Source: an uncultured Eubacteriales bacterium (GTDB lineage: Bacteria; Bacillota; Clostridia; TANB77; CAG-508). Taken from it: a stretch of 64,000 nucleotides of DNA. The DNA lies in NCBI GenBank assembly GCA_902492015.1, contig CABUJR010000006.1, positions 50,421-114,420 of the forward strand, written 5' to 3'. Each line of letters begins with the position of its first letter. The stretch's first letter is position 1. The notes under the pieces were generated by a model, which was given only the letters and a program-made list of their open reading frames with translations, was not told where the DNA came from and did no database searches. Of this stretch, positions 1,070-62,630 are shown piece by piece. Made by a program: the position numbers and the translations under genes.

Positions 1070-2275
1070 ATGAAAGAATCAATAAAAAATATTTTATTTG
1101 AAGTACTAATTTTTTTAGCGATAATAGTAGTAGCTATTATATGTGTATATTTGCAAAGTCATAGTATTATGATTAATTTAGATGACAATTCTACATATAT
1201 AGAAAAAAAGGATGCCAAATTAACATCAGGAGAAAAAATAACTATAGAAAAAGAACAGGGAATTGCATGTATAATTTTAGGAATAACAATTTTATTATTT
1301 ATAGTTAATTTTGATATGATGCATAGAAATGAAAAAACTAAAGAAATTTCAAGAGAAGTGGAAAATTTAATTTCGCCTTCACTTGCAGAAGTTGTAATTG
1401 ATGGAAAAATAGAAATAAAACATTTAATAATGTCAACAATTATAGATTTAAGTCTTAGGGGAAATATAGAGATAATAAATAATGATACTATAAGACTTTT
1501 ATCAACAGGAAATTTAGAACTTTATGAATCAAAAATTATAGATTTAATATTTCAAGATAGTAATGTGGTAGCTTTTAAAGATATTAATAAAATATTTAAA
1601 AAATCTAATAAAAAAACTGTAGAATTTAGTAAGCAAGTTCAGATTATTAAAAAATTAATTGTGGAAAAATTATATAATATTAAGATTTTTTCTGCTGAGA
1701 AAACCTTAATTAATAAAGTTATAACTTCTATATCTTTGTTTTTAATAATAAATTTAATTTTAATACTTTCAGGTTTCTTAAATGCAATAGAAGCTTTAGT
1801 TACAGTTAATATAATTTTAATTGTAGCATACATATATTATTTATATAAAGGTACTTCAATGTTAGAACAAAAAGAAACAAATGCATATAAAAGTGAAAAA
1901 AGAAAATTATATATTTTAATGATATGTATAGTAGTTTCTTTAATTTTAACTATAGGAAAAATCATGATTTATAAACCACAAATGATTCTTCTTGTTTTAC
2001 TAACAGTTGGCTTAAATATAATTATTATAAAAAATAGCAAAGATGTTGTTTTAACAGATAGAGGAAAAATAGAAAAATTAAAATTATTAAGACTTAAAAA
2101 TTATATTAATGAATATAGTCTAATAAAGGATAGAGATTTAAATTCGTCTGTTGTTTGGGATAAATATTTAGCTTATGCGACAGCTTTTGAGATACCAAAC
2201 AAAGTAACAGATTCTATTTATGAATCTTGGTATGACTTAAATCTTACTTTGCAATTTATTGATAGAATTTTGTAG
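1070..2275 (+). CDS. Hypothetical polytopic membrane protein
   Basis: 401-aa ORF with several hydrophobic helices and an aggaaataaat-ATG context. No recognisable catalytic motif. Confidence 0.5.
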   Translation: MKESIKNILFEVLIFLAIIVVAIICVYLQSHSIMINLDDNSTYIEKKDAKLTSGEKITIEKEQGIACIILGITILLFIVNFDMMHRNEKTKEISREVENLISPSLAEVVIDGKIEIKHLIMSTIIDLSLRGNIEIINNDTIRLLSTGNLELYESKIIDLIFQDSNVVAFKDINKIFKKSNKKTVEFSKQVQIIKKLIVEKLYNIKIFSAEKTLINKVITSISLFLIINLILILSGFLNAIEALVTVNIILIVAYIYYLYKGTSMLEQKETNAYKSEKRKLYILMICIVVSLILTIGKIMIYKPQMILLVLLTVGLNIIIIKNSKDVVLTDRGKIEKLKLLRLKNYINEYSLIKDRDLNSSVVWDKYLAYATAFEIPNKVTDSIYESWYDLNLTLQFIDRIL

Positions 2276-3974: not shown

Positions 3975-4015
3975 AGTTTATATGAAAACTAATTGAAAAA
4001 AGGATAAATAAAGTT

Positions 4016-4046
4016 CTAGCAAGAATATTTTGCTAGAGCTTTTTTA
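4016..4046 (+). terminator. Rho-independent terminator after tyrS
   Basis: Stem ctagcaa / ttgctag with a 7-nt loop, followed by a T-run. Confidence 0.7.
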
Positions 4047-4083: not shown

Positions 4084-4228
4084 AGGTTTACGCCCAATAT
4101 TGCACACAAGTTTTTTTCAAAAAACTTGGTAGGACGAACAAAGACGTGAACATCTTCATAAAATTTAATCTTTTGCAATTATCATAATGTACACTTTTGT
4201 TCTATGATAGAAAGGACTCTTACTTAAG

Positions 4229-4257
4229 TTGAAAATATTATGTAAATATGTTATAAT
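4229..4257 (+). promoter_or_regulatory. Sigma-A-like promoter for the rSAM islet (TTGAAA-17-TATAAT)
   Basis: TTGAAA at 4229-4234, 17-nt spacer, TATAAT at 4252-4257, about 95 nt upstream of the rSAM start. Confidence 0.5.
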
Positions 4258-4354
4258 AAAAAATGGTAATCTTTGTTAGAGAATAAGACAAGTGGATAAG
4301 CTTGTTAGGTAGATTCTCAAAACAAAAAACACAAAGTATCAAGGAGGAACGAGT

Positions 4355-5728
4355 ATGAAGCTAAGAACAAGGATGTACCTACGGAAAAGACTAAATGAAG
4401 TCAAACACACAACTTTAAACCCAAACGGGCCAGGTGTTGTTCGGATTCATTTGGTGCCACCGAAAGCTGGCAAAGAAGATGCACCAGCAGTAGTAATTAT
4501 TAACGGAAGGGATTTGCTGCCTATTAAACCTTCGTGGAGTTTACTTTTGGCAGAATTCATAACGCAAATAAACTACTATGCTGGAAAATCTCTTTCAGAG
4601 GATGACCTTCGCACAATAAGAGATAACACTTTTGTGCAGGTAACGAAGGTTTTCAGGAAAGTGGATCGCGACCTGTTAAGAGATGACCTGAAATCACTGA
4701 TGGACACGTTATGTAAGATTGCATACGGAGAAGAAGTGGACGAAGACATTCCATATATGTCTATCGGTGAATATGCATCCTACATGAGTGCTCCGCACAG
4801 AATTGATTTAATGATAAGCAGTATGACCAAATCTGGAAAATGGCATTGTAACCAGAGATGTGTTAACTGCTATGCAGCAGGTCAGACTGAAGCGGAAGTC
4901 AATGAACTTTCTACAGAAGAGTGGAAGAAAATCATTGACAAATGCAGAGCCGCATATATACCACAAATTACATTTACCGGTGGAGAACCAACAATGAGAA
5001 ATGACTTGGTAGAACTTATTGACTATTCTCAATGGTTTGTAACCAGGTTAAATACCAATGGTATTCTCCTCTCAAAGGAGCTTTGTAAGCAACTTTATGA
5101 GGCGAGCTTGGATAGTGTACAAATAACTCTATACTCATCTGACGAAGCCGAGCATGAGGCACTTACCGGTAGTTGCGGTACCTTTAAACACACAGTACAA
5201 GGAATAAAAAATGCCATAGAGGCAGGACTGAATGTGAGTATTAATACTCCGCTGTGTAAAGGAAACTCAGATTATGTAAAAACACTCAAGTTTTTGCATA
5301 GCTTGGGAGTAACTTATGTTTCTTGTTCTGGTATTATTTTTACTGGAAATGCGAGAAGCAAGACTGCAAAGGAAAAGCAACTGACAGAAGATGAGCTTTT
5401 CAAGATTCTTAAAGAAGCGACAGCATATTGCTGGCAAAATGATATGGAGATTGCATTTACATCTCCTGGGCAAGTTTCAGAAGAAAAACTTGAACAGCTC
5501 GATCTATCTCTTCCCACATGTGGTGCTTGCCTTAGTAATATGGCTATCGCACCAAATGGCAATGTTGTTCCATGTCAGAGCTGGTTAAATGGCAATTCTG
5601 TATTAGGAAACATGCTGTCTGATCCGTGGAAGAGAATTTGGAATTCCCCTAAAGCCTTAAGTATCAGGGAGTTTTCTGCTCGGATGGAGCATACATGCCC
5701 ATTAAAGACAGTAAAGGAGGACAAATAA
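4355..5728 (+). CDS. Radical SAM enzyme with SPASM/twitch-like C-terminal Cys-rich domain and ~160-aa N-terminal (RRE-like?) extension
   Basis: CNQRCVNCYAAGQ (CX3CX2C) at about aa 165. Later Cys clusters CKGNSDY, SCSG, CGAC...PC, HTCP. Strong RBS aaggaggaacgagt-ATG. About 43% GC against a 27% background. Confidence 0.85.
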   Translation: MKLRTRMYLRKRLNEVKHTTLNPNGPGVVRIHLVPPKAGKEDAPAVVIINGRDLLPIKPSWSLLLAEFITQINYYAGKSLSEDDLRTIRDNTFVQVTKVFRKVDRDLLRDDLKSLMDTLCKIAYGEEVDEDIPYMSIGEYASYMSAPHRIDLMISSMTKSGKWHCNQRCVNCYAAGQTEAEVNELSTEEWKKIIDKCRAAYIPQITFTGGEPTMRNDLVELIDYSQWFVTRLNTNGILLSKELCKQLYEASLDSVQITLYSSDEAEHEALTGSCGTFKHTVQGIKNAIEAGLNVSINTPLCKGNSDYVKTLKFLHSLGVTYVSCSGIIFTGNARSKTAKEKQLTEDELFKILKEATAYCWQNDMEIAFTSPGQVSEEKLEQLDLSLPTCGACLSNMAIAPNGNVVPCQSWLNGNSVLGNMLSDPWKRIWNSPKALSIREFSARMEHTCPLKTVKEDK

Positions 5729-5729
5729 T

Positions 5730-6689
5730 ATGAAAGCAAAAACAATGGTAACACGGATAATTATTGTTTTGGCTGTTATTTTCACTTTACTGCCAATAAC
5801 AGTATATGCCAAAGAACCCCTGGATGAAATCCAGGACTACACAGTAACAGTTGACCTTAGACCTGATGGAACAGCAGATATCAAGTATCATCTGGAATGG
5901 AAGGTACTTGATGACAGTTCAGAAGGCCCTTTGGAATGGGTAAAAATAGGTATTGCAAATGAGAATGTTGATGAAATTACAGCATTAACAAGCAATATAA
6001 GCAAGATCAAATATTACCCAGAGGGATCAGATGATTATGTTCGCATAGATTTTGATAGAAAATACTATGCGGGGGAAGTCATAAATTTTGATTTCTCACT
6101 TCATCAGAGTCATTTGTACGTAATGGATAAAGAAGAGCATCTGCTCAGATATTCTTTTACACCGGGCTGGTTTCCTGAAATTGAGGTAAAAAATATCACT
6201 ATCAAATGGAATAAAAATAATGTGATTAAAACCTCAGCAGAACAAGAAGATAGCAATGGATATTATGTTTGGAATGGAAGCTTAAGCTTTGATGAAAGGC
6301 TTAATGCATCTGTTTCTTATAATCTGGATGCTTATGCTGCTACTGAAGAAGGTCAGGCTCAAGAAAAGGAAGAAGATGGAATACCAACGATTTTGGTAAT
6401 AATTCTTATTGTACTAATTGTTATATTGGTAATAGTAGTTCTTGTAGCTATCTTTTCAAACGATGATGATTATGGTTCTGGTAGAGGTTATGGAGGAGGC
6501 TCTCATTATAGGAGCACATATATCCATACACATCATTCTTCTTGCGTAAGTAGCTGTGCTTGCGTGCATTGTGCATGTGCATGTGCATGCGCAGGCGGTG
6601 GAAGAGCAGGATGTAGCAAGAAAGACTTCTACGGTACTAATCTTAAGAAAGACATGATGGATAAGGTTCTAAGCGAAGAGCTGGACTAG
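5730..6689 (+). CDS. DUF2207-like single-pass membrane protein with cytoplasmic Cys/Gly-rich tail (putative rSAM substrate)
   Basis: Signal peptide, about 190-aa ectodomain (IQDYTVTVDLRPDGTADIKYHLEWKV), TM helix IPTILVIILIVLIVILVIVVLVAIF, and tail ...GGGSHYRSTYIHTHHSSCVSSCACVHCACACACAGGGRAGC. Start is 2 nt after the rSAM stop, with RBS aaggagg. Confidence 0.6.
   Translation: MKAKTMVTRIIIVLAVIFTLLPITVYAKEPLDEIQDYTVTVDLRPDGTADIKYHLEWKVLDDSSEGPLEWVKIGIANENVDEITALTSNISKIKYYPEGSDDYVRIDFDRKYYAGEVINFDFSLHQSHLYVMDKEEHLLRYSFTPGWFPEIEVKNITIKWNKNNVIKTSAEQEDSNGYYVWNGSLSFDERLNASVSYNLDAYAATEEGQAQEKEEDGIPTILVIILIVLIVILVIVVLVAIFSNDDDYGSGRGYGGGSHYRSTYIHTHHSSCVSSCACVHCACACACAGGGRAGCSKKDFYGTNLKKDMMDKVLSEELD
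6570..6593 (+). repeat. (TGYGCA)4 hexanucleotide microsatellite encoding the CACACACA tract
   Basis: tgtgca tgtgca tgtgca tgcgca, in frame as Cys-Ala repeats. Confidence 0.8.
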
Positions 6690-6723
6690 TAAAAGACCAA
6701 AAAAAGATTTAATTTGTGTTAAA

Positions 6724-6765
6724 GATAGCAGGGCGGAGATTTCCGCGCCTGCTATCTTTTTATTA
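6724..6765 (+). terminator. GC-rich rho-independent terminator ending the rSAM islet
   Basis: gatagcagggcgg ... ccgcgcctgctatc stem followed by tttttatta. Confidence 0.75.
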
Positions 6766-48098: not shown

Positions 48099-49949
48099 TT
48101 ACTTAACGGTATTACCTACCGAAGCATTTTTCTTATATTCTGTAAATAGTGAATCTAGCTCATCTCCCATTACTGTTTCTTGATCTAAAAGAAGTTTTGT
48201 AAGTGCTTTTGTGAGTTCCATATTTCCGTTGATAAGCTCTATCGCCTTCTTTTCAGACTCTTTAAGGATACTTGCCACTTTATTCCAGATTGCGTCAAGA
48301 GTATGTTGACCCAGATAATCGGTACTTGGTGCATCATCTCTAAATGATATAGGTCCTAACTCCTCGTCCATACCATACTGCATAACCATCCTTCGAGCTT
48401 TTTCTGTAGCAACTTCAAGATCGTTTGAAGCTCCTGTAGAGATATCTCCGATTAAGATTGATTCAGCAGCTCTACCAGCAAGCAAAACAATTAAACTTTC
48501 AGTAAATTCCTGTTTGCTGATATATTGTTTATCCTCTGTGCTTTCATGCATAGTGTATCCACCAGCAGTTCCTCTGGGAACGATTGATATTTCCTTTACA
48601 TTTGACTGCGTTGGAAGTAACTTGCCAACTATTGCGTGTCCTGATTCATGAACTGCAGTAATTTTTCTTTCTTTTTCTGAGATAATTCTTCCAGTTTTCT
48701 GAAGTCCTACTAATAATTTCTTTTGGGCTTCATCAATATCAGATTTATGAATAATCTCATGATTGTTCCTTGCAGCCATGAGAGCGGACTCATTAAGCAA
48801 ATTCTCAAGTTCTGCACCTGAATATCCCGCTGTGTTACACGCAATTCTATAGAAATCCACATCCTCGTAGAATTTCTTGTTTCTGGCATGCACGTGTAGA
48901 ATTTCCATTCTACCTTTTACATCAGGCAAATTCACAGTAACTTTTCTGTCGAATCTACCGGGCCTTACTAATGCAGGATCTAAGCTATCAAAGCGGTTGG
49001 TAGCACCAAGAATCACTATATCGGTTCTGTCCTTAAAGCCATCAAGTTCGATTAACAGCTGTTCGAGAGTTTGATTTCTCTCGTCATTGCTGTCTCCTCG
49101 TTTTGCTCCTATAGAATCAATTTCATCAATGAAAATGATACATGGAGCTTGCTTTCTGGCTTCTTTGAACAATCCTCTAATACGTTGAGCTCCAACTCCA
49201 ACATATTTTTCTACGAACTCTGAACCAGATACAGCAAGATATGCTACATCTGCTTCACCAGCCACAGCCTTTGCAAGTAATGTTTTACCAGTTCCAGGGT
49301 TTCCTGAAAGAAGTATTCCTCTAGGGATTTTTGCACCTAACTTTAAATATTTATCAGGATTTTTGATGAAGTCAACAACTTCCTCTAATTCTTTCTTTTC
49401 TTCGTCTAATGCTGCAACATCTGAGAACCGAACATCACTTTTGGTAAGTTTTTCCATAAAGTTAATGTCAGTATTTAGAACATTTGCAAAACTTAGAAAG
49501 TTAGAATTATCTGATTTTTTATTATTTCCTGTAAATTGTTTCGTTAGATATTTAAGCCCCATGATAAGAGCTGATCCCAAGTATACTGAAGCTACCAGAG
49601 TTAACAAGAAACCTAATATCAAATCACTAATGCTTGATTCTTCAGGTATTACTTCTAAATTTACAGGATTACCATAATAGATAATTTCATCCTGTATAAA
49701 ATTTAGAAAAACCTCCTCATTTGGAACTTCAGCCATTACTATTGTGTTATCAAGTAGTATTGCATTCACTAAGCTATCTCCCTCTTGTAGCTCAACAGAA
49801 GCAACTTTTTCTGATTCTATTAAGCTAATAAAGTCAGAGTATGACACGCTAACAGGCTTGGTTTTGGTTGGTGAATTTAAAAGCCGTACTCCTGCAAAGA
49901 TAAGAAGTGCGATTAAACCCATAAATGCTACAATTTTTAATTTTTTCAT
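48099..49949 (-). CDS. ftsH: ATP-dependent zinc metalloprotease FtsH
   Basis: Two TM helices, AAA Walker A GPPGTGKT, SRH, HESGH zinc motif. Confidence 0.92.
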   Translation of the reverse strand: MKKLKIVAFMGLIALLIFAGVRLLNSPTKTKPVSVSYSDFISLIESEKVASVELQEGDSLVNAILLDNTIVMAEVPNEEVFLNFIQDEIIYYGNPVNLEVIPEESSISDLILGFLLTLVASVYLGSALIMGLKYLTKQFTGNNKKSDNSNFLSFANVLNTDINFMEKLTKSDVRFSDVAALDEEKKELEEVVDFIKNPDKYLKLGAKIPRGILLSGNPGTGKTLLAKAVAGEADVAYLAVSGSEFVEKYVGVGAQRIRGLFKEARKQAPCIIFIDEIDSIGAKRGDSNDERNQTLEQLLIELDGFKDRTDIVILGATNRFDSLDPALVRPGRFDRKVTVNLPDVKGRMEILHVHARNKKFYEDVDFYRIACNTAGYSGAELENLLNESALMAARNNHEIIHKSDIDEAQKKLLVGLQKTGRIISEKERKITAVHESGHAIVGKLLPTQSNVKEISIVPRGTAGGYTMHESTEDKQYISKQEFTESLIVLLAGRAAESILIGDISTGASNDLEVATEKARRMVMQYGMDEELGPISFRDDAPSTDYLGQHTLDAIWNKVASILKESEKKAIELINGNMELTKALTKLLLDQETVMGDELDSLFTEYKKNASVGNTVK

Positions 49950-61889: not shown

Positions 61890-62630
61890 TTAGATTTCCA
61901 TCAATCTAATCATTTCCGATTTTTTTGATGGTTCAATTTTGGCAATCTTAAATACATTAGGTGTGATCCATTCCTTTGCAGGGGAGCTCCCTTGTATTAA
62001 TTCACCAAAGTCGTCTTGCTGCTCGCTCCAGGTCTCCTTGATTTCATCCGGGACAATAAACAGAAACTCTGGCTTGAGTAAAACGTTCCCTCTCACCAGG
62101 TCAGCTTCTTTTAGCTCATTCCAAAGCTCATCAAGCTTTCTTTCTGTTTCTTTCAGTTTCTCCATGTCTATAGGATGTATCCCCATATAGCGGATATAAT
62201 CTTGGCTACGAAATTTGTAATTCAGTTCTATGCATTCGTAAATCTTATCAGAGCACATAATTGCTTTCGTAGCAGTTTCTTTTGATTCTACGTAATCGGA
62301 AGACAACTGTAAAATGAAATTTTCATTTTTCCATTTGGTTTTTACTTCTCCCAAAAATGGAAAAGTTCCTAGTATGGGGATGTCGTCTCCGCCGCTATAG
62401 AAATGGGGCTCCATTTCGTTATAAGATATTTCCAGCAACGTGTGGGAACTTGAATCTAGTGTTGATATACATTCGCCACAACAAAATGCAATTGGAAAAA
62501 TTTCAATCTCTCCTTTTTTATTTACATGGACATTCCGAATAAATGTGATCGGAGTTACTTTGTAGCTGTAGCATTTTTCCATAATTTTCTCCTCCTTGGG
62601 AATAAATGTTTTTATGTTAACTCTAAACAT
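61890..62630 (-). CDS. Hypothetical cytoplasmic protein in GC-elevated islet
   Basis: 246-aa ORF at about 40% GC against a 27% background. No recognisable motifs; FCCGEC Cys cluster. Confidence 0.5.
   Translation of the reverse strand: MFRVNIKTFIPKEEKIMEKCYSYKVTPITFIRNVHVNKKGEIEIFPIAFCCGECISTLDSSSHTLLEISYNEMEPHFYSGGDDIPILGTFPFLGEVKTKWKNENFILQLSSDYVESKETATKAIMCSDKIYECIELNYKFRSQDYIRYMGIHPIDMEKLKETERKLDELWNELKEADLVRGNVLLKPEFLFIVPDEIKETWSEQQDDFGELIQGSSPAKEWITPNVFKIAKIEPSKKSEMIRLMEI

Follow-up and report, generated by a model that had tools for sequence, protein, structure and literature searches.

An alternating Cys-Ala motif in a membrane-protein tail and an adjacent radical SAM/SPASM enzyme: a candidate substrate-enzyme pair behind a coding hexamer repeat

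Radical S-adenosylmethionine (rSAM) enzymes with a SPASM domain are known chiefly from the biosynthesis of secreted peptide natural products, and a few serve as protein cofactor maturases. The domain is defined by a seven-Cys motif, CX9-15GX4C ... CX2CX5CX3C ... C, which binds two auxiliary clusters, and a RiPP recognition element (RRE; RiPP, ribosomally synthesised and post-translationally modified peptide) is a PqqD-like fold composed of a three-strand sheet and a three-helix winged helix-turn-helix. SkfB, a Twitch-like enzyme with a single auxiliary cluster, acts on the adjacently encoded SkfA, a small exported peptide that contains Cys and acquires one Cys-to-Met thioether. CteB, which acts on SCIFF (CteA), and PapB, which acts on the freyrasin precursor, are SPASM rSAM enzymes with an N-terminal RRE, and their substrates are soluble peptides of about 45 amino acids (aa) with a conserved N-terminal leader and a Cys-rich C-terminal region; a substrate Cys ligates the auxiliary cluster of CteB, and PapB crosslinks C-x3-D motifs. 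QhpD and anSME are SPASM enzymes acting on Cys residues of proteins that keep the modification, namely thioethers in QhpC and formylglycine made from Cys in sulfatases. Here we analyse a 64,000-nucleotide (nt) stretch of DNA from an uncultured Eubacteriales bacterium (GenBank contig CABUJR010000006.1, positions 50,421 to 114,420; hereafter the window), in which a dedicated rSAM/SPASM enzyme is paired one-to-one with a membrane protein whose only deeply conserved feature on the predicted cytoplasmic side is an alternating Cys-Ala run followed by GGGRAGC. A preliminary description of the window had drawn attention to the hexamer repeat that encodes this run, and had suggested that its length might vary by slippage. 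On balance, we favour a joint reading in which the conserved tail motif and the dedicated enzyme form an enzyme-substrate pair, the copy number is held by selection, and the hexamer repeat is the DNA footprint of a protein motif under strong purifying selection. The two genes and the parts of the membrane protein are as follows.

4355 to 5728, + strand: gene of the radical SAM/SPASM (Twitch-like) enzyme, 457 aa, assigned from Pfam, alignment, an AlphaFold2 (AF2) model and Foldseek
5730 to 6689, + strand: gene of the single-pass membrane protein, 319 aa, starting 2 nt after the rSAM stop codon (junction TAATATG)
5730 to 5810, + strand: predicted signal peptide and N-terminal hydrophobic helix, aa 1-27 (...VYA/KEP), from the sequence and a model helix at residues 2-20
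5817 to 6329, + strand: predicted extracellular beta-sandwich, aa 30-200, resembling DUF2207-N, ribophorin-I and the M1-aminopeptidase N-domain
6387 to 6464, + strand: transmembrane (TM) helix, aa 220-245, from a model helix and the hydrophobic run ILVIILIVLIVILVIVVLVAIF
6465 to 6617, + strand: disordered, predicted cytoplasmic tail, aa 246-296, with predicted local distance difference test scores (pLDDT) below 50
6570 to 6593, + strand: (TGYGCA)4 tract encoding (Cys-Ala)4, from the sequence, Tandem Repeats Finder and shuffles
6570 to 6632, + strand: conserved motif CACACACA-GGG-RAGC-S-K-KDFY, aa 281-301, from positions invariant in 46 homologues

Of 45 distant loci, 44 have an rSAM homologue (31-58% identity) next to the membrane-protein gene; the loci span Lachnospiraceae, Oscillospiraceae, other Clostridia, Dehalococcoidia, Aminicenantes, Zixibacteria, Krumholzibacteriia and Chitinivibrionia, and the contig carrying the 45th locus has no upstream sequence. 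The rSAM gene is usually directly upstream of its partner, which it overlaps or abuts; exceptions are two loci with divergent orientation and one at which it lies downstream. When the comparison is reversed and started from three rSAM homologues on long contigs, a gene of about 310 aa ending in the motif is present directly 3' in each of the three, and the genes that flank the pair in these contigs are unrelated. No peptidase or protease, exporter or third conserved gene was found beside the pair among the loci examined. This conserved adjacency to a radical SAM/SPASM gene (44/45 and 3/3) strongly backs the earlier guess that the Cys-rich protein is the substrate of a maturase. In the window, the two genes form a tight and probably translationally coupled operon. 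One distant locus (L020, 3917-6554) has three tandem membrane-protein paralogues behind a single rSAM gene, two of which carry the motif, one of them as CACACACAGGGGGGCACAGSGRAGC, and one of which is truncated just after the TM helix.

The motif is conserved as a peptide. A search with the membrane protein yields 3204 homologues at E<=1e-3, and all of the 120 best (46-100% identity) contain CACACACAGGGRAGC followed by S/A/T-x-K-D-F-Y. Residues C281 to A288, R292, A293, G294, C295, K298 and D299 are invariant in an alignment of 46 sequences, the Ala positions of the tract as much as the Cys positions, and the family consensus is (CA)n-GGGRAGCS.KDFY. Moreover, a profile search of 1.84 billion cluster representatives identifies 746 clusters (50% identity) at E<=1e-3, and the motif is visible in 111 of the best 150 representatives; most of the motif-less ones among these 150 are fragments, near-variants, or sequences in which the tract is read in another frame. 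The spelling of the tract over the 45 distant loci includes every mixture of TGT/TGC and GCA/GCC/GCG/GCT, and two syntenic relatives (73% and 60% protein identity) keep exactly (CA)4 with the Ala codons GCT GCT GCA GCA and GCT GCT GCC GCC. Such synonymous codon turnover with an unchanged peptide implies that selection acts on the peptide and that the DNA repeat is a by-product. Members from Aminicenantes, Zixibacteria, Krumholzibacteriia and Chitinivibrionia (L048, L050, L052, L053) contain CACACVSCACACACAGGGGAGCSRK and then an extra HxCPxC. When the literature was searched with CACACAGGG, GGGRAGC and CACACACAGGGRAGC, DNA primers were the sole matches.

Two further features of the family were observed. 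Many Lachnospiraceae loci (L011, L014, L015, L022, L029 and others) have an insert of roughly 100 aa between the TM helix and the Cys motif, which contains a zinc-ribbon-like CPxCG...CPYCG element. In addition, the tract is read in a shifted frame, giving tails such as RVRVHVHAQAEEEQ, or the motif follows a frame change, in a few members that include P0406, P0420 and P0482. Locus L010, a candidate motif-less member, was rejected as such, the motif being present in another reading frame (around 4855). The frame shifts in L010, P0406, P0420 and P0482 would reflect either pseudogenes or assembly or sequencing errors at the repeat.

At the DNA level, bases 6570-6593 consist of TGT GCA three times and TGC GCA once, in frame with the open reading frame (ORF) 5730-6689 (+ strand), and they encode CACACACA (C-A-C-A-C-A-C-A) as codons 281-288 of 319; directly 5' of the tract, TGC GTG CAT (6561-6569) encodes C-V-H. 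The four tandem hexamers and the Cys/Gly-rich tail of the preliminary description are therefore present as described, and its placement of the tract in the C-terminal third of the gene is true but loose, since the tract sits in the last eighth. Tandem Repeats Finder reports 6564-6593 with a period of 6, 4.8 copies and a score of 44. Four tandem TGYGCA units occur once in the window, even when two mismatches are allowed, and in none of 100 dinucleotide-preserving shuffles of it, so the tract is real and not a chance product of composition. Its uniform TGT/GCA spelling matches local codon preference: TGT accounts for 71% of Cys codons and GCA for 51% of Ala codons in the long ORFs of the window.

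The description of the unit as palindromic holds for TGCGCA, which is its own reverse complement, but not for TGTGCA, of which the reverse complement is TGCACA, and the 20-mer that had been quoted as self-complementary is so at 16 of 20 positions. This partial self-complementarity is what speaks for an action of the tract as nucleic acid, by way of a hairpin or cruciform affecting replication, transcription or translation, an idea that we consider exceedingly unlikely. As single-stranded DNA, none of three spans around the tract folds better than shuffled sequence (z +0.74, +0.69 and -0.18), with 158, 153 and 83 of 200 shuffles folding at least as well, and the hairpin or cruciform was rejected on this ground. 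Moreover, the synonymous codons of homologues destroy the palindrome while the peptide is invariant, and the nucleic-acid explanation is refuted by this codon comparison.

We next consider repeat number, compared here at the level of assemblies and sequence clusters. At least 20 contigs, from 8 or more samples, carry exactly this protein, all with the identical sequence. Because they represent one clone, they are a weak test at ordinary mutation rates, although variation even within one clone would be expected of a true contingency tract. The eight contigs retrieved for this clone are 99.98-100% identical to the window, and the 90% cluster of the protein is a single sequence. Ten other species-level clusters, with about 140 full-length members, were compared, and nine of them are invariant at (CA)4. 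In the remaining cluster, around P0098, there are four in-frame indel alleles (+6, -18, -24 and -30 nt): P0230 has one extra TGTGCA unit; P0224 has an 18-nt deletion between TGTGCATGTG repeats and is represented by 8 contigs, including an NCBI genome; P0228, a fragment with protein-level evidence only, has a 24-nt deletion; and P0223 has a 30-nt deletion on 8 contigs. The three indels seen at the DNA level are bounded by TGTGCA-type repeats. Over the whole family the contiguous run comprises 3-7 CA units, with 3 units in 8 cluster representatives, 4 in 44 and 5 in 59, and some Lachnospiraceae loci reach 6-7.

These data bear on the proposal that the hexamer is a slippage-prone contingency repeat, the strain-variable copy number of which tunes crosslink number or metal capacity. 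The expectation that hexamer indels alter the Cys-Ala count in frame is confirmed by the alleles of the P0098 cluster (+1 unit, and -6, -8 and -10 aa), and the spread from 3 to 7 units among distant family members is also in keeping with the proposal. As in the contingency loci of Neisseria, Haemophilus and Campylobacter, there is a short tandem repeat in coding sequence with rare slippage-type indels in a relative; unlike in those loci, the tract has 3-4 hexamer units and is in frame, so that no on/off switch results, it is non-polymorphic within the lineage, and it is conserved at the protein level across phyla. Three perfect units are too short for high slippage rates in simple-sequence contingency loci, and the tract has only three. 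No variant occurs in the 20 contigs of the clone or in the single-sequence 90% cluster, (CA)4 is retained in all 120 closest homologues and in nine of the ten species-level clusters, codons in the syntenic relatives turn over synonymously without a change in copy number, and the largest deletion is found where the enzyme has been lost, a pattern that resembles decay and not tuning. We therefore regard a contingency function as very unlikely. Repeat-mediated in-frame indels are real but rare, and a role in tuning or phase variation is unsupported by the data; the comparison of copy number that the preliminary description had recommended gives identical numbers in this lineage at assembly level, which counts against its length-variable tuning device. 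Conservation of a protein can evidently impose a coding "microsatellite" of Cys and Ala codons, which is then not necessarily a sign of hypermutability, and the value of the locus rests on the uncharacterised enzyme-substrate pair rather than on the microsatellite.

The loss of the enzyme concerns the P0223 lineage, a natural knockout that is represented by 8 contigs from at least 5 samples. In all retrieved P0223 contigs that reach this region, similarity to the reference locus starts at nucleotide 2003, inside the rSAM gene (1134-2504), and an unrelated Peptidase_M19 context stands in place of the first 870 nt of that gene, in which the cluster motif lies (L058-L062 compared with L064). The deletion is also the largest of those in the tail: 10 residues are gone and only SSCACAGGGRAGC, that is (CA)2, is left, in an otherwise intact membrane-protein gene. 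The rSAM gene is intact beside the P0224 allele, which keeps (CA)4, and neighbouring alleles with an intact rSAM gene likewise have (CA)4, with or without an upstream CAC unit. A truncated enzyme together with a decayed tract is in keeping with maintenance of the tract for the sake of the enzyme.

The window enzyme matches Pfam PF04055 (Radical_SAM) with 76.2 bits, against a cut-off of 29.5 bits, and PF13186 (SPASM) with 36.8 bits, against a cut-off of 21.5 bits. Its CxxxCxxC motif (C165/C169/C172), which in the rSAM superfamily serves the SAM-binding [4Fe-4S] cluster within a partial TIM barrel, is invariant in 36 homologues, and so are C244, C301 and C324 as well as C389, C392, C407 and C448 of the reduced SPASM region. 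The AF2 model (pLDDT 80.9; predicted template modelling score, pTM, 0.82) exhibits a barrel-like alternation of strands and helices. The first SPASM element is present as C392-x9-G-x4-C407, and CX2CX5CX3C is cut down to its last Cys (C448-P-L), as is generally the case in the Clostridial clade; the homologues from other phyla that were inspected (L049, L050, L052) keep the full CX2CX5CX3C, CSDCEFKQTCGGGC. Because of this reduction, the Clostridial enzyme is probably Twitch-like with one auxiliary cluster, as in SkfB. SkfB (6efn) is also the best sequence match in the PDB (E 9e-13, about 20% identity), followed by GDGT-MAS, PqqE, BlsE, MoaA, CteB and SuiB, and Foldseek places it first for the AF2 model (E 6e-14), ahead of SuiB, anSME and CteB, with alignments to the RRE-bearing enzymes SkfB, SuiB and CteB that extend over 420-450 columns and include the N-domain. 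The N-terminal segment of about 135 aa is modelled as strands 17-21, 29-34, 45-49 and 53-57 followed by helices 59-75, 82-99 and 105-123, and this topology, together with the global Foldseek alignment, suggests an RRE-like domain. No NCBIfam family reaches its cut-off for the enzyme, the best being NirJ2 (115.9 against 500 bits); the SkfB model TIGR04403 scores 58 bits against a cut-off of 300 bits, and all of the named maturase models (SkfB, PqqE, MftC, StsB, WgkB, HxsC, ScmE/F, NirJ/AhbD and others) are below cut-off; for the Zixibacteria and Dehalococcoidales homologues scanned, no family reaches its cut-off either. Assignment of the locus to a known defence system was rejected, PADLOC giving only generic viperin-core similarity for the rSAM enzyme.

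The gene context and the sequence of the motif make it rather likely that the tail is the substrate of the enzyme. If so, the enzyme would dock through its N-domain on the conserved GGGRAGCSxKDFY segment, with the GGGRAGCSKKDFY segment as a candidate for pairing with the N-domain sheet, and would modify the (CA)n strand post-translationally inside the cell. A substrate Cys thiol would probably engage the auxiliary Fe-S cluster, as in CteB. The products might be thioether crosslinks from Cys sulfur to carbon, either of the sactionine type on the Ala alpha-carbon or of the ranthionine type on Asp299 of the C-x3-D sequence CSKKD, which resembles the motif crosslinked by PapB. Such chemistry is a speculative and somewhat unlikely suggestion, prompted by the occurrence of this chemistry in the nearest characterised relatives and by the invariance of the Ala residues. 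Once modified, the tail would remain part of the membrane protein instead of being exported as a peptide, and selection would hold the copy number at a set value, with slippage supplying only rare variants. The substrate-enzyme hypothesis is directly testable with a short, synthesisable peptide.

Several points weigh against the enzyme-substrate reading. We infer the modification itself from gene context and fold alone. Pfam gives no match, and hence no PqqD-like domain, for enzyme residues 1-145 searched by themselves, so that the RRE-like assignment draws on topology and the global Foldseek alignment. The correlation between truncated enzyme and decayed tract in the P0223 lineage is a single evolutionary event. 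C-x3-D is not conserved outside Clostridia, where CSRKxxH, CSVKNF and CAERGY occur instead, which weakens the idea of a crosslink to Asp. The second-best PDB sequence match, GDGT-MAS, is a lipid-modifying enzyme, so a non-peptide substrate is possible, and the alternating CxC pattern also looks like a metal-binding site.

This last point underlies an explanation in which the tail is an unmodified, metallothionein-like metal or Fe-S site, on which the rSAM protein docks, or with which it exchanges a cluster as donor or recipient, without covalent modification. The tails of homologues hold 5-10 Cys in a flexible Gly-rich segment, often flanked by His-, Tyr- and Ser-rich sequence, HxCPxC is added in members from other phyla, and the Clostridial enzymes are without three of the CX2CX5CX3C ligands, all of which would suit such a site, as does the CxC pattern shared with metallothionein-like peptides. 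The spacers are invariantly Ala, however, and variation at such positions is usually tolerated in metal sites; a dedicated rSAM gene also always accompanies the membrane-protein gene. Moreover, the enzyme appears to show every feature of a catalytic peptide maturase, and a strict one-to-one pairing of neighbouring genes across phyla is typical of an enzyme and its substrate. An unmodified metal site is thus unlikely in our judgement, if the foremost of the alternatives. Less probable still is a small molecule or lipid as the substrate of the rSAM enzyme, with the membrane protein as anchor or regulator and the motif as docking peptide. The sequence similarity to GDGT-MAS, and also to MoaA and BlsE, the NirJ/AhbD-like top matches in NCBIfam (all far below cut-off) and the membrane-embedded partner are consistent with this idea, but the top structural matches are peptide maturases, the N-domain is RRE-like, the tail of the partner is most conserved in a Cys-rich stretch such as SPASM enzymes modify, and no other biosynthetic genes are conserved beside the pair.

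Returning to the enzyme-substrate pair, its closest described counterparts differ from it in several respects. SkfB, the best match in sequence and structure, has only about 20% identity to the window enzyme, and in place of a small exported peptide the candidate substrate here is the tail of a 319-aa membrane protein, in a locus without export or protease genes. Unlike the leader-bearing substrates of CteB and PapB, the motif comes after a TM helix and consists of an alternating (CA)n run, and the Clostridial enzyme is without the full CX2CX5CX3C. Similarity to QhpD and anSME, the latter among the top structural matches of the enzyme, does not extend to a C/S-x-P/A-x-R sulfatase motif or a quinohemoprotein context, neither of which is present, and the tail here is disordered and membrane-anchored. 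Nor is the protein a short (under about 100 aa) soluble precursor: it has 319 aa, a signal peptide, a folded ectodomain and a TM helix, and its resemblance to a core peptide is limited to the Cys-rich, disordered C-terminal region. The unusual elements of what is otherwise a radical SAM maturase with a Cys-rich substrate are the membrane tether and the simple alternating core. No Pfam or NCBIfam model covers the pair, a full-text literature search joining "DUF2207" and "radical SAM" gave no paper, and broader searches (rSAM, membrane tail, Cys-Ala) found nothing relevant. We tentatively raise the possibility, to which we give rather less than even weight, of a previously undescribed rSAM modification system in which the cytoplasmic tail of a bitopic membrane protein is the substrate, its (Cys-Ala)n being crosslinked or otherwise rewired into a structure anchored beneath an extracellular beta-sandwich, such as a thioether ladder or a metal- or redox-active site derived from Cys. 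Such a system would extend over Clostridia and at least five further lineages of phylum rank. The pair itself is found in hundreds of sequence clusters, many of them from gut and rumen Clostridia, and in several other phyla.

As for the membrane protein, signal peptide cleavage is predicted at VYA/KEP, and from the signal peptide and the single TM helix we infer that the tail is cytoplasmic. The beta-sandwich (residues 30-200) is modelled with pLDDT above 90 and resembles the OST1/M1-N fold in structure comparison. The tail begins with a conserved juxtamembrane DDDY..G.GGG segment, in which D246, Y248 and G253 are invariant in the homologue alignment, and continues with the Cys-rich segment; two short C-terminal helices follow the disordered part in the structure model. 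Pfam finds nothing in the tail alone, an NCBIfam scan of the protein gives no matches, and similarity to DUF2207 consists of a weak Pfam match to the N-domain PF09972, below the gathering score. DUF2207 proteins, such as S. mutans SMU.243 (PMC10457818), likewise have an N-terminal extracellular beta-sandwich and a Gly-rich C-terminal tail, and members of the present family from other phyla show GGGGGFGG ahead of the Cys motif. There is no Pfam match to PF20990, the multi-helix DUF2207_C, and the protein has the single TM helix 220-245 instead of that multi-TM domain; neither the (CA)n-GGGRAGC motif nor an rSAM partner has been described for DUF2207. The pair may give a first functional handle on DUF2207-like proteins. 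A genuine DUF2207_C membrane protein (Pfam E 2.7e-25) of native AT-rich composition is encoded at 1070-2275 (+ strand), 2 kb upstream of the membrane-protein gene of the cassette and beyond tyrS; a homologue occupies the same position in one syntenic relative (L074), and none is called there in the other (L076).

Signals that delimit the two-gene cassette are present on both sides.

4010 to 4042: terminator-like hairpin closing tyrS, upstream of the cassette promoter
4229 to 4257, + strand: promoter-like site TTGAAA-17-TATAAT with a TG extension, 11/12 consensus matches (consensus match only)
4343 to 4348: ribosome-binding site AGGAGG, from the sequence
6721 to 6763, + strand: predicted intrinsic terminator closing the cassette, a bulged GC-rich stem with a U-run

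The terminator at 6721-6763 has an RNA folding energy of -27.7 kcal/mol (z -6.7), and none of 200 shuffles folds as well. The cassette (4355-6689) is a compositional island, with a GC content of 40% and 37% in the two genes against about 25% in the flanks, and a third-position GC content (GC3) of 0.36 and 0.28 against a window median of 0.105. Two relatives (L074, 6626-8951, and L076, 6622-8963) hold the cassette at the same tyrS-U32 locus, with GC3 of 0.20-0.35 against about 0.10, and in them it has diverged (60-77%) about as far as the flanking genes. The shared locus and flank-like divergence imply that the GC anomaly is old and persistent, and recent horizontal transfer was rejected on these grounds together with the same GC3 excess in both relatives. 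The left edge of the island (4157-4161), between the tyrS terminator and the cassette promoter, is the start of five independent Logan contigs of the same clone, which may reflect an assembly-graph branch from strain variation at this junction.

No tRNA or tmRNA genes were found in the 64-kb window. Elsewhere in it, the strongest other compositional outlier is an ORF of 246 aa at 61890-62630 (- strand), which has no Pfam match, a GC content of 0.37 and a GC3 of 0.39 against about 0.10. The FtsH gene (48099-49949) also has a somewhat raised GC3 of 0.26. Finally, a sign change in cumulative GC skew near 48 kb coincides with a switch in gene orientation, most genes being on the + strand before this point and on the - strand after it.

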